NCBI GenBank assembly: GCA_000004695.1 | Contig: CM000152.2 | Span: 1,120,001 to 1,184,000 of the forward strand | Source of the DNA: Dictyostelium discoideum | Lineage: Eukaryota | Direction of reading: 5' to 3' | Length of the DNA stretch: 64,000 nucleotides | Shown: positions 23,468 to 27,597 of the stretch, piece by piece | Position numbering within the stretch: the first letter of the stretch is position 1 | How the letters are laid out: the number at the start of each line of letters is the position of its first letter | Notes under the pieces: model-generated | What the model saw: only the letters and a program-made list of their open reading frames with translations | Databases searched by the model: none | What the model was told of the DNA's origin: nothing | Position numbers and translations under genes: made by a program

Positions 23468-26400
23468 TTAATTAATATATTCTGATGTTGTATCAGATAA
23501 ATAAAAGGAAGGTGTATTTGGAAGTGATTGAGCACATGGAGACTCATTTGAACTTGGAGCACTGTCTAATGGTGAGGTATTTTGAATTGGGCTCAAAGCT
23601 AAATTTAATGATGATAGTTTTTCAAGGGTTGGAGTTGTATTTGAACCTTGAATTTGATTTGGTGTACTATTAGTTGATAGAGAACTATTATTGTTATTAT
23701 TTGGTGAATTATTTGTTGTGGTGGTGGTTGTAGTAGTAGTATTGGTGGTGGTGGTAATTTGATGTTGTGATGTTGTATTTAAAGTATGGGGCGATGAAGT
23801 TGAACCTGGATTTTGTTGTTCTAATTTCACACAAACTCCACAAAGAATAAATACTGTTGGTCTTTGAATTTTTTGTTTTTTAACAGGGAATTGGTGTTGT
23901 TGTTGAAGGAGAAGATGAGAAGTTTCCAAAAGAGCTGGTGATGAAGATGATGAAGAAGCAGAGATTGGAGTTGGACCATTTGGTTTTGATGAAGAAATAG
24001 TTAAGCAACTACCACTACCACGATGAGTAACATCATCAACCAAATGACTATTATTTGGATTTAATAAAAGATGATTTTCAGTTGTTGTTGTTGTTGTTGT
24101 TGTTGTTGTTGTTGAAGGTTGTGGTTGTGGTGGTAGTGGAGGTGGTGGTGGTAATTGATTATGTCTAAATTCAGCATATTCTGTTTTATCTAAAATTTTA
24201 ACATCATTTGGTAAACATGTGATACAAAAAGAGGATGGACAACCTTTACAAATGAAGAAACTACCACCAGATTCGTTTGGTGTCTTTTTACATTGATGAC
24301 AAGCATGTCTTGAACATTTCCAACTTCTTGGTGTATGAGCTAAACCAGCACATGATCTATGATAGATCTTTGGGCATGATCTACATTGAACCATTGATGT
24401 GCGACCTTTAGAATCCTCTTCTTTCTTACAAGAAAAACAATTTCTATCCAACAAAGTCTTATGTTTTTTTGGTGATCTATTCTTTTTCTTTAAATCTTCA
24501 GCTGTTTTCAACATTGATATTGGATCACTACCAGATGGTGATGAAGATAATGGTGAAGGATTTGATGAATCACTACCACCACTAGTTAATGAAAATGATT
24601 TAACACCATTTAAACTACTAGTTTTCCATAAATTATTATTAGAATTATTATTATTATTATTTCCTAATAAATTTGTGCTACCATCGAATGAAGTTGATTT
24701 TGAATTTAAAATTGACATTGATTGAATTAAATTTGCTTTTGTTTGAAATTGACTAAATAGTAATGGACTACTACTTCCACTACTTGTAGTTGGTGAAATT
24801 GCACCACCACCAGCAGCGGTGGTAGTAGTAGTTGAGGAGGAGGAAGAGGAGGAAGTTGAAGTTTGAAGTATATTTTTTTTATAATTGGACATTTTGACAA
24901 TACAAAATTTCATCATTTCAACCATTTCATCCTTTTTAGACTTTTCAAATAAAGTTTTTTCAGCAGATTCTATCATTAGGTTTGATGAATTTGTATTACT
25001 TATACAATTGAAATCAATCTTTTGGTTTCTAATGAATAACCATTCTTCAACTGTACCTGCTGTTAATAATCTAAACTTTCTAATTGTTGATGGTGATGAC
25101 GATGATGATGATGATGATAATGATAATAATGATTCGATCTTTAATTTCAATGTTATTGAATTATTAATATTGATTTCCTTTGATAAATCTAAATTCCAAT
25201 AATATTCAAATTCAATTACATTGAATTGATTAATTGAATTTAAATTGGTTGGAATTGGTGGTGGTGATGATGGTGGTGTCGATGATGTAGTTGGTGATGA
25301 TGATGGTGATGATGATGATGACGATGAAGATGATGATGATGATGATGACCATTCATTTCCACCTCCTAAATTTGTAAGAATCTTTGTATCAAAATTTATA
25401 AATTCAACAAAACTTGATAAAATAATTACTGGTGAACTTGTTATATTTCTACTTGTTGCACTATCAAGTAAATCATTAATTTTAAAATAATTTAATGATC
25501 TAAAAAAAAAAAAATTAATATAAAAAATTAATATAAAAAGGTAATAGAAAATTATAAAATAAAAATAATTGCTTACTTTAATTTTAAAAATTCTTCTAAT
25601 AAAGTAAATAATTGAATTGAAGAAGATAATAAAATAATAACTTGACGTTGTTGTTGTTGCTGTTGATGTTGTTTAATAATATTCTGAATTAAATAATTTG
25701 TAGCTAAAAATTTTGAAGATGAATTTGCTATACTATTATTTTGATTATTTAATAGATTTGGATGATTACAACATTTCTCTAACATGAAATAAAGATCATA
25801 TAAAAATTTAGTTTGATCCAATTGACCAGAATTCATTTTTGGTATATTTTCTTTAAGTAATGATCTATATAAAACCTCTTGTGTATCTGAAATTTGAAGT
25901 AATATATCTTTTCTTAAACTATTATTATTATTATTTGTATTTGTATTATTACTATTGTTATTATTATTATTATTATTATTATTATTATTATTATTATTAT
26001 TATTATTATTATTATTATTATTACTATTATTAAAACTCTCAAATGATGATAAAACTTGAGACTCAATTTGCTTTTCAAATGGAATTTCAAATGATGATAG
26101 TGGTGATGGTATTGTCACTGATGATGTTGTTGATGAAGTATTTTGCATTGAAACATTTATTAACAAATCATTTGATGGTGGTTCGCAAATTGATCTTTTT
26201 CTTGATTGAATTAGTGGCGTGGATGAAGATGATATTGATTGTGTTCCTATATTATTGTTATTATTATTGTTATTATTACCCAAATTATTTATTACCACTG
26301 GCATATTGGTTGGAGTTGAAGATTTATTAGCATATATCAGATTTAATTCCTCTGAGATGTTGCCCATACTACTATTATTATTACTATTACTATTATTATT

Positions 26401-27597
26401 ATTATTATTATTATTATTATTATTATTATTATTATTATTATTATTATTATTATTATTATTATTATTATTATTATTATTATTATTATTATTATTATTATTA
26501 TTATTATTATTATTATTATTATTATTATTATATGAAGTTATTTGATATGGTGATGGTGGGCTATTACTAATATGTGGTATTTGTTGGGATGGAGATGATG
26601 AGTGAGTAATTGGTATAAATTGTTGTTGTTGAATAGGTGATCTTGGTTGTTGGGGTGGAGGAGTTAAACGCGGGTTAATTTGATAATATTGTTGTTGTTG
26701 TTGTTGTTGTTGTTGTTGTTGTTGTTGTTGTTGTTGTTGTTGTTGTTGTTGTTGTTGATATTGAATATTACCATTGCTATTATTACAATTATTGTTATTG
26801 TTTCCGCTATTATTACTATTACTATTACTATTACTATTATTATTATTATTATTATTATTATTATTATTATTATTATTATTATTATTATTATTATTATTAT
26901 TATTATTATTATTATTATTATTATTATTATTATTATTATTATTATTATTATTATTATTATTACTATTACTATTGTAGTACATTACAGTTGGCATATTTGT
27001 ATGATGTTGTGATGGCGACATTGGGTGACTATTTGAATCACCACAACAATTTATATTATTGTTATTATAACTAATATTTGGACTAGCCAAATATTCATTT
27101 ACATTTACATCTTGTATGTGGTGTTGTTGATGGTGGTGTTGTTGTGGCGAAAATGGATGTTGTTGAATGTGGGTATGTGTTGGTGGTGGGGAAAATGGTT
27201 GTTGAGATGGCGAAAATGGTTGTTGTTGGTGAGGAGAATAAGGTTGTTGTGGTGAATATGGTTGTTGTTGTTGTTGTGGTGAATATGGTTGTTGCTGTTG
27301 TTGTTGTGGCGAATATGGTTGTTGTGGTGAATATGGTTGTTGCTGTTGTTGTGGTGAATATGGTTGTTGATATTGTTGTTGATAATGAGATTGTTGATGT
27401 TGTTGTTGTTGTTGTTGTTGTTGCTGCTGCATCATCATTTGTTGGTGGTGAATTTGTTGTTGATGAAGTTGATGATTTTGATGATAATTATTTATATCGT
27501 CAGGCATTGCGTATACCTGAGGAGATAAGCCATTATTATTATTATTATCATATTGACTATTATATATCATATGCTGTTGCTGTTGCTGTTGCTCCAT
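23468..27597 (-). CDS. Single roughly 1350-aa gene, complement(join(23468..25499,25577..27597)): an N-terminal poly-Q/poly-N low-complexity region with QQPYSP repeats, and a C-terminal Ser/Thr-rich region with a PHD-type Cys-rich zinc finger.
   Basis: The 674-aa ORF ends ...EEFLKLK at a TAA that sits inside an AAG/GTAAGC donor. The 77-nt AT-rich intron ends T(13)AG at 25500. Reading stays open and in the same frame through 25150..25499 as ...LNYFKINDLLDSATSRNITSSPVIILSS...PPIPTNLNSINQFNVIEFEYYWNLDLSKEINI..., into the 560-aa ORF. The PHD-like block is CFSCKKEEDSKGRTSMVQCRSCPKIYHRSCAGLAHTPRSWKCSRHACHQCKK. The joined length is divisible by 3. Confidence 0.7.

Follow-up and report, generated by a model that had tools for sequence, protein, structure and literature searches.

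A two-exon gene of Dictyostelium discoideum combines a putative, catalytically dead ISWI remnant with an NSD-type PHD module

Do two long open reading frames (ORFs) that lie end to end on the minus strand of the Dictyostelium discoideum genome belong to one gene, and if so, what kind of protein does that gene encode? The locus occupies positions 23468 to 27597 of a 64,000-nucleotide stretch of DNA (assembly GCA_000004695.1, contig CM000152.2, positions 1,120,001 to 1,184,000 of the forward strand), which is referred to here as the window; coordinates given without further label are window positions on the minus strand. A first-pass annotation, made from the sequence alone, had joined the two ORFs, of 674 and 560 aa, and had read the product as a prion-like N-terminus fused to a PHD finger. 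Our analysis supports a single two-exon gene with a product of 1350 aa and places in the middle of that product a domain that had been overlooked. Taken as a whole, we consider it probable that the protein acts in the nucleus as a non-enzymatic reader or scaffold of chromatin, one that combines a dead ISWI remnant with an NSD-type PHD module.

Read directly, the 674-aa ORF runs from 27597 to 25573 and ends L-K-stop (...EEFLKLK-stop). The TAA that closes it (25575..25573) is made up of bases 2-4 of a GTAAGC splice donor starting at 25576, as the first-pass annotation had recognised; the exon, however, ends TTAAA/GTAAGC (the slash marking the splice site) rather than AAG/GTAAGC, a form in which the G is counted twice. 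The intron (25500..25576) is 77 nt long, lies in phase 2 and ends T13AG as described earlier, with a computed A+T content of 90.9% instead of the reported 95% or so. G+C over the intron is 14.5%, the level of the flanking intergenic DNA, against 23.6% for the window. Exon 1 (25577..27597, 2021 nt, ATG at 27597..27595) encodes aa 1-673 and the first two bases of codon 674, while exon 2 (23468..25499, 2032 nt) supplies the last base of that codon, aa 675-1350 and the stop TAA at 23470..23468. From 25499 exon 2 reads K(AA/A)-S-L-N-Y-F-K-I-N and remains open down to this TAA, passing through 116 full codons and the split codon, which together make up the 117 codons counted earlier, before it enters the listed 560-aa ORF. 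The two exons sum to the 4053 nt already proposed for the joined coding sequence, that is 1350 codons and a stop, with no internal stop in the joined frame.

Eight GT..AG pairs around the junction would restore the reading frame. Only the pair 25576/25500 unites a strong donor with a pyrimidine-tract acceptor and also leaves in place the residues that orthologues conserve; the seven others were rejected because each is without a T-tract acceptor, has only a weak donor or would remove conserved residues. According to the D. discoideum genome paper, introns of this species reportedly have a donor near GTAAGT, an AG after a T-rich tract and a short AT-rich body. The intron at 25576..25500 has a donor, a T-rich acceptor and a short AT-rich body of this kind, and its removal restores the frame.

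The exon 2 frame also reads open backwards across the entire intron (25500..25600; IRRIFKIKVSNYFYFIIFYYLFILIFYINFFFFRSLNYFK), so the lack of stops there is no evidence of coding. With a length of 77 = 3 x 25 + 2 nt, the intron connects the exon 2 frame to exon 1 by a two-base shift alone.

Similarity to known proteins runs through the junction. Human SNF2H aligns LDILEDYCMWRNYEYCRLD without a gap to FTLLEEFLKLK/SLNYFKIN, and within this segment LEEFLKLK/SLNYFKIN, which belongs to the SNF2-like domain described below, is matched by ILEDYCMWRNYEYCRLD of SNF2H. It is extremely improbable that the locus holds two separate genes, with the TAA at 25575..25573 a true stop and the downstream ORF served by its own promoter and start. 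The 674-aa ORF is indeed closed by a stop codon, but the two frames are only 77 nt apart across an AT-rich gap, and the first ATG of the downstream ORF lies deep within the conserved SNF2-like domain, its listed start being a TTG. Furthermore, similarity to ISWI and to six dictyostelid proteins is unbroken over the junction, public annotation has a single 1350-aa gene, and the intron position is kept in five other loci. On frame arithmetic, homology over the junction, the public 1350-aa call and the shared intron codon, the joining of the two ORFs across the intron at 25500..25576 stands, and we assign them, as predicted from the DNA, to one two-exon minus-strand gene encoding 1350 aa.

Together, the public 1350-aa call, the homologues consisting of single proteins and the shared intron codon show that the gene model, although correct, had already been made. 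In another D. discoideum assembly, GCA_054883475.1 (CM142509.1), a 4130-nt gene for a product of 1350 residues has been called next to the gene for CstF-50, and the DNA of this gene is that of window 23468..27597 base for base. The public product was equated with the window gene by its length, its range and this identical DNA; subtracting the 4053 coding bases from the 4130 nt of the public range leaves exactly 77 nt for the intron. The gene-structure call made here is therefore a confirmation of existing annotation.

Six homologues were found in five other dictyostelid species, each of them one protein with the same order of parts: D. purpureum XP_003292873 (P0004; 1026 aa), a 62% identical orthologue; Polysphondylium violaceum KAF2077071 (997 aa); a EukProt protein (1051 aa); Heterostelium album PPL_04447 (985 aa); and two proteins of Acytostelium subglobosum (821 and 784 aa). 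The comparison with other dictyostelids that had been suggested at the outset thus found the joined architecture to be kept. Homologues missed by a word-indexed protein search came from HMMER, run exhaustively over 1.84 billion representative proteins. With a 563-aa query the indexed search returned only three group-2 homologues and passed over D. purpureum, a limit of the tool and not an absence, and with the PHD alignment or a single PHD sequence it returned nothing despite identical words in P0004. Orthologues are labelled ‘hypothetical’ or ‘PHD-type domain-containing’ in the databases, and the H. album entry has precomputed HDA2-3 and PHD matches.

A phase-2 intron interrupts the same codon, after (K/Q/S/T)(L/Q/K/M), in D. 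purpureum (79 nt), P. violaceum (66 nt) and both A. subglobosum genes (P0002, P0003). In H. album it falls at the conserved codon only after the splice is re-read with a GTATGT donor and a TATAG acceptor, which gives ..NLK/SITFTKPG.., closer to the other species. The presence of an intron at one codon across these dictyostelids implies that it is older than the divergence of these genera. The two ends of the protein also have counterparts in the D. purpureum orthologue: the N-terminus MEQQ..IYNSQ(Y/F)D..LSPQ(V/M)YA..DDIN.YH is common to both and backs the start, and the C-terminus ..SLPNTPSFYLSD..EYIN (PSFYLSD..EYIN) backs the stop.

The comparison of loci also turned up two gene models of other dictyostelids that are probably in error. 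Intron 1 of H. album PPL_04447 as annotated (L001 4530..4629, 96 nt, donor GTATAT) is probably wrong; the alternative, L001 4530..4607, is 78 nt long, has its donor 4 nt upstream of the annotated one and adds SITFTK. The annotated ‘intron 2’ of A. subglobosum SAMD00019534_074710 (L002 about 4386..4449) deletes DNA for the conserved EFDHYWQQQ of the lobe-2 remnant, and appears to patch a sequence error, given an assembly N at that place and a read-through stop about 25 codons further on. A second intron before the PHD finger (..KRQKNL/..) is present in H. album (L001 5392..5479) and in one A. subglobosum paralogue (L003 4825..4902), and is not in D. discoideum, D. purpureum or P. violaceum, a distribution which suggests that an intron was lost or gained within Dictyostelia.

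The first-pass annotation had taken the intron as the seam between a Q/N-rich module and a PHD module; in fact it interrupts a conserved ISWI-like SNF2 lobe-2 domain, and the idea of a fusion at this point falls. The domain, aa 564-880 (24881..25908), consists of the end of lobe 1, a helical insertion with CCNHP, lobe 2 and a NegC-like MVEMMKFCIVKMS tail. Of lobe 1 it retains, at its start, only the final strand and helix (..LLQISDTQEVLY..), and its RecA-like lobe 2 has degenerate motifs IV, V and VI. Searched against the PDB, a four-member family profile of aa 564-880 matched Myceliophthora thermophila ISWI, yeast Isw1 and human SNF2H at 6e-24 to 6e-21; the alignment to ISWI spans profile positions 1-259, which is essentially the whole length and includes the NegC-like tail. 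The next matches were CHD1L (3e-15), CHD1 (1e-14) and CHD4 (4e-14), followed by HELLS, INO80 and Snf2/Sth1. In the HMMER search the six dictyostelid proteins came out on top, at 1e-109 to 4e-26, and the next ten matches, as far as they were named or read, were ISWI-type ATPases of plants, a springtail and yeasts, together with one heterolobosean. Among the matches listed from this library there was no closer relative outside Dictyostelia.

Structure prediction points the same way. The AlphaFold2 (AF2) model of the remnant has a predicted local distance difference test score (pLDDT) of 72.7 and a predicted template modelling score (pTM) of 0.72, and its alternation of strands and helices is consistent with a RecA-like fold with helical insertions. 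In a Foldseek search of the PDB with this model, the best match was lobe 2 of M. thermophila ISWI with the H4 tail (5jxt), and CSB, SNF2h, CHD1 and Rad54 were also found. A RecA-like lobe 2 with the SNF2-specific helical insertion is thus present, as judged by the profile match (E 6e-24) and the fold matches of the model.

The best relatives in both sequence and fold are accordingly the ISWI ATPases (Isw1, SNF2H/SMARCA5 and the Myceliophthora enzyme). The likeness extends to individual blocks: MS..Q..Y..L, a CCNHP that resembles LRKCCNHPYLF, an LLEEFL that resembles LDILEDY, and FRLLTAGTVEEW, which resembles V(R)VFRLIT..TVEE; in addition, the LLxM(I/V)(R/K) of the NegC region is kept as MVEMMKF. 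By these relationships the central domain is a remnant of an ISWI-type SNF2 ATPase, a reading that was previously unremarked as far as could be found. The isw gene of D. discoideum, DDB_G0292948, is named in PMC3848188, and the Dictyostelium SNF2 survey covers ATPase-competent members only, the single ISWI included.

The remnant differs from ISWI in that its catalytic parts are gone. The ATP-binding motifs I, Ia, II (DExx) and III of lobe 1 are not present, similarity to ISWI beginning only at the last strand of that lobe. No lobe-1 exon was found upstream of 27597, where the sole notable ORF is an unrelated MSP-domain fragment. In an alignment of seven family members with ISWI (A4), motif IV has changed from FSQ to LSS, motif V from TRAGGLGINL to SSFVEFINF (STFLESSIY in three homologues), and DSDWNPQ to EF(E/D)xYW, while motif VI, QAxDRAHRIGQ with its arginine fingers, is missing from all seven. 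Motifs IV, V and VI, with their catalytic and DNA-tracking residues, are thus replaced or missing in every member of the family, and none of the seven proteins is matched by the Pfam families SNF2-rel_dom or Helicase_C. HAND-SANT-SLIDE, which follows in ISWI, had no Pfam match at E up to 0.01-1; in its stead the protein has a PHD-C5HCH module, as well as a long disordered N-terminus. The non-catalytic blocks CCNHP, LLEEFL, FRLLTAGTVEEW and the MVEMMKFCIVKMS of the NegC region are kept. Lacking both the ATP-binding lobe 1 and the catalytic residues of motifs V and VI, the protein is predicted to be one that cannot hydrolyse ATP or translocate DNA.

Lobe 2 is further interrupted by a Ser/Pro-rich insertion of about 47 aa (aa 719-765, 25226..25366), which follows the motif V remnant. 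It occurs in D. discoideum and D. purpureum only and is predicted to be disordered (pLDDT below 50 over model residues 158-198).

Remodeller-derived domains without ATPase activity have been described before, and one parallel is found in yeast. Hda2 and Hda3 have an SNF2-type lobe 2 with a helical subdomain and no ATP-binding motif; this domain serves as a DNA- or nucleosome-binding scaffold in the Hda1 class II histone deacetylase (HDAC) complex, and a long antiparallel coiled-coil C-terminal domain scaffolds Hda1 (PMC7793584). Hda2 also has a disordered Ser-rich loop within the domain, as here. The protein might therefore be the dictyostelid counterpart of fungal Hda2/Hda3, tethering a class II HDAC to chromatin via its lobe-2-like domain, a reading that we regard as unlikely. 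In its favour, HDA2-3 (PF11496) is the sole Pfam family to match the domain, reaching 29.4 bits in H. album against a gathering score of 27, with matches below the cut-off in D. discoideum (24.1 bits for the isolated domain), A. subglobosum P0002 (21.5) and P0005 (19.9); the domain of Hda2/Hda3 is of the same kind (PMC7793584); and the fold matches include, at a significant E of 2e-5, chain 6z6o_C from the Hda1 HDAC complex of yeast. However, the 24.1 bits of the D. discoideum protein, which is not reported at full length, fall short of the required 27, and three homologues have no match at all. With the family profile, no Hda2/Hda3 chain in the PDB was matched at E up to 10, compared with 6e-24 for ISWI, and 6z6o_C stood only at rank 39 among the fold matches, behind ISWI, CSB, CHD1, Rad54 and others. 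The sequence is thus far nearer to ISWI. There is, moreover, no C-terminal coiled coil: zinc fingers apart, P/G/S/T/N/Q make up 58-75% of the remaining sequence, and no helix that AF2 predicts in aa 1012-1240 exceeds 9 residues. Hda2/Hda3, for their part, have no PHD finger.

A second precedent is Arabidopsis MOM1, likewise a lineage-specific remodeller descendant with lobe-2 helicase motifs only, which acts without ATPase activity (PMC2507757), as the D. discoideum protein presumably does. MOM1 differs from the present protein in that it derives from CHD3 and not ISWI, and in that it has lost its PHD finger, which is here strongly conserved. It acts via its CMM2 motif, which is not a Pfam family and for which no search was made here. 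MOM1 exemplifies a remodeller remnant in an ATP-independent role, though one whose SNF2 remnant is dispensable (PMC2507757). By analogy, the SNF2-like region of the D. discoideum protein could be a functionless relic, and what matters would then be the PHD module and the short linear motifs. The loss of the catalytic motifs, the tolerance of lobe 2 for a long disordered Ser-rich insertion and the fact that the partial SNF2 domain of MOM1 can be deleted with silencing retained (PMC2507757) would all agree with such a relic. We nevertheless consider it doubtful, as erosion would be expected of a relic over such an evolutionary span, yet the non-catalytic blocks Q..Y..IPK, L..LY..L..NHP and M.EMMK.C..K are kept in five species of at least three genera. 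The block (F)RL(L/I)T..TVEEW is also kept, although only its V-E..W is invariant. Furthermore, the family profile matches the six dictyostelid proteins at the E values of 1e-109 to 4e-26 given above, and the AF2 fold is confident outside the insertions.

The second conserved part of the protein is a tandem zinc module at aa 1028-1106 (24203..24439), in which a PHD finger of C4HC2H type is followed directly by a C5HCH-like finger. The first-pass annotation had placed a PHD finger in the C-terminal half and proposed a Pfam search, which bears this out: PF00628 (PHD) matches aa 1028-1070 with 24.7 bits in the full-length protein and 32.3 bits in the isolated region, against a gathering threshold of 24, and PF23004 (PHDvar_NSD) matches the same residues with 30.1 bits against a cut-off of 27. 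The PHD ligands, C-x2-C-x14-C-x2-C-x4-H-x2-C-x11-C-x2-H, do not vary among the four proteins of one alignment (A2) or among all seven of another (A6), and the last ligand is a His, as in PHD5 of NSD proteins. A profile of aa 1012-1124 found NSD1 (2naa, 4e-7) and NSD3 (4gnd, 1e-6) at the top of the PDB matches, and all eight significant Foldseek matches of the AF2 model of aa 1012-1240 were PHD5-C5HCH structures of NSD1/2/3. The modules of NSD1, NSD2 and NSD3 (2naa, 4gnd-4gng, 9gbf) are thus the best matches for aa 1028-1106 in sequence and fold, and share with it a PHD finger ending W-x-C-x2-H that passes at once into C-x2-C...C-x2-C-x4-C. We therefore identify the module, on these matches, as an NSD-type PHD5-C5HCH tandem. 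Unlike the NSD proteins, the D. discoideum protein has no SET, PWWP or other NSD domain (no Pfam matches to AWS-SET-postSET or PWWP were obtained), and membership of the NSD family proper, as of the Hda2/Hda3 and MOM1 families, was rejected by domain tests.

The second finger departs from its NSD counterpart in that its sixth ligand is Cys and not His, and in that the last ligand pair is not contiguous with the rest and may be a CxxC about 120 aa downstream. The segment in question, KKxK..RP(T/M)Vx(I/M)xCxxC (aa 1214-1232, 23825..23881), is invariant and lies past a variable linker; R-P-x-V-x-(I/M)-x-C-x2-C is found in 7/7 proteins, 50-115 residues after the second finger. In the AF2 model the mean pLDDT rises from about 30-40 in most of the linker to 83 here, where the CxxC lies at aa 1225/1228. 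We tentatively propose that this CxxC reaches across a disordered linker of 50-115 residues and gives the second finger its two missing ligands.

How could these parts work together? The protein comprises four of them: a disordered, fast-evolving N-terminal half rich in Q, N, S and P; the ISWI remnant; the PHD5-C5HCH module; and two short C-terminal motifs. The PHD module would dock on the histone H3 tail or on a partner zinc finger; the module of NSD3 reads H3K4me0/H3K9me3, and that of NSD1 has a partner zinc finger as its ligand and does not bind histone peptides (PMC8398374, PMC4838375). Nucleosomes, DNA or partners would be bound by a surface of the dead lobe 2, comparable to that of Hda2/Hda3 in the Hda1 complex, and the disordered half would make multivalent contacts. 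A nuclear location, binding to histones and nucleosomes, and a scaffold role are what we infer for the protein from its parts.

Several points weigh against this interpretation. The AF2 models were built on only 7-10 sequences, and the run on the zinc module reached moderate confidence in only 1/5 models. Of the eight ligands of a C5HCH finger, the second finger shows only six in a contiguous set, all of them invariant Cys. Histone reading is not guaranteed, given that the PHD5-C5HCH of NSD1 binds no histone peptide (PMC8398374), and the remnant may lack a binding role, given that the SNF2 remnant of MOM1 is dispensable (PMC2507757). The joined 1350-aa protein was not found by exact look-up in the protein collection, and neither was the 674-aa ORF. 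In the literature, no paper names PPL_04447, DICPUDRAFT_157636, F0ZZM5 or the protein family.

A bolder form of the chromatin-scaffold reading, which we put forward only tentatively, is that of a dictyostelid ‘pseudo-remodeller’. It would be an ISWI duplicate that lost the ATP-binding lobe, kept lobe 2 and the NegC-like tail, gained an NSD-type PHD that reads H3, and now acts as a non-catalytic regulator. The parts kept would be those which in ISWI form the surface that binds the H4 tail together with autoinhibitory elements, and the protein could compete with the single bona fide ISWI on nucleosomes, or act as a partner in trans for it or for another donor of lobe 1. If true, this would represent a hitherto undescribed way of controlling remodellers.

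On either view the protein belongs to a known kind, the remodeller-derived pseudo-enzymes. It would be a conserved, uncharacterised, dictyostelid-restricted chromatin factor, and would add an ISWI-derived member to the non-enzymatic remodeller scaffolds represented by Hda2/Hda3 and MOM1. It also raises the question of whether remodeller remnants keep nucleosome- or H4-tail-binding functions. As D. discoideum is genetically tractable and has one ISWI, the role of a lobe-2-only remnant coupled to a histone reader would be approachable there.

The N-terminal half, from which the first-pass annotation had drawn its functional proposals, is of a different character. Residues 1-563 (25909..27597) form a poorly conserved low-complexity region, and the Q/N-rich composition described earlier is confirmed: aa 1-590 contain 31% N, 18% Q and 12% S, with runs of N42, Q23, N46 and N23. 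At the DNA level, Tandem Repeats Finder (TRF) reports (TAT)n arrays at 25920..26032 and 26373..26973. A repeat had been described as roughly eight copies of Q(3-6)PYSP at 27200..27450; it is present, but in the form of nine copies of Q(0-6)P[YF]SP, six PYSP and three PFSP, at 27145..27369 (aa 77-151). The DNA beneath it is a tandem repeat with a 75-nt period, 2.2 copies and 90% identity (27221..27382), from which the array appears to be a recent expansion and not an old selected repeat. Neither the long N/Q runs nor the array recur in the other homologues or in the orthologue from D. purpureum, where one PFSP is all that is present.

For these reasons it seems quite unlikely that the Q/N-rich N-terminus and its array are a prion-like activation domain regulated by proline-directed kinases. 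The N and Q content of aa 1-590, the nine P[YF]SP units, the 20 S/T-P sites within aa 1-600 and the low-complexity N-terminal half that is common to all homologues would fit such a domain. However, neither the long N/Q runs nor any but one of the P[YF]SP units are shared by the 1026-aa D. purpureum protein or the other homologues, and the array is an expansion on a 75-nt DNA duplication that is still 90% identical. Moreover, predictions class about one quarter of the proteome of this species as prion-like (PMC13093961, PMC11537047). Q/N tracts are therefore ordinary in D. discoideum and do not speak for a prion or a kinase switch in particular, so that neither proposal can be upheld.

Three short motifs stand out from the variable regions. 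The first, (V/I)(N/D)E(Y/F)L(A/S) (aa 166-173, 27079..27102), is found in 6/7 proteins and is followed by SD-acidic residues in most homologues. The second, a basic RKRS..EPPSN(D/E)L patch (aa 465-478, 26164..26205), stands out best in D. discoideum and D. purpureum and resembles a nuclear localisation signal. The third lies near the C-terminus and reads LP(N/D)TPS(F/L)YL(S/T)D (aa 1333-1343, 23492..23524), or (S/T)PxFYL(S/T)D over aa 1336-1343; it is intact in 4/7 proteins, with shorter FYL or FGL remnants in two more.

Downstream of the two-exon gene, the plus-strand ORF at 21749..23269 is the WD40 gene for CstF-50, the 50-kDa subunit of cleavage stimulation factor, and its product is identical to AX4 XP_641951.1 / Q54XS9, an identity that marks the window as nuclear DNA of D. 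discoideum. The two genes are convergent, with 198 nt of A/T-run DNA between their stop codons, and this tail-to-tail order is retained in D. purpureum. On the other side, a 71-aa ORF at 30925..31140 on the minus strand resembles the start of an MSP/VAP-domain protein, and public annotation has a 365-aa gene with long introns at roughly window 28719..31412 (L004 16966..19659).

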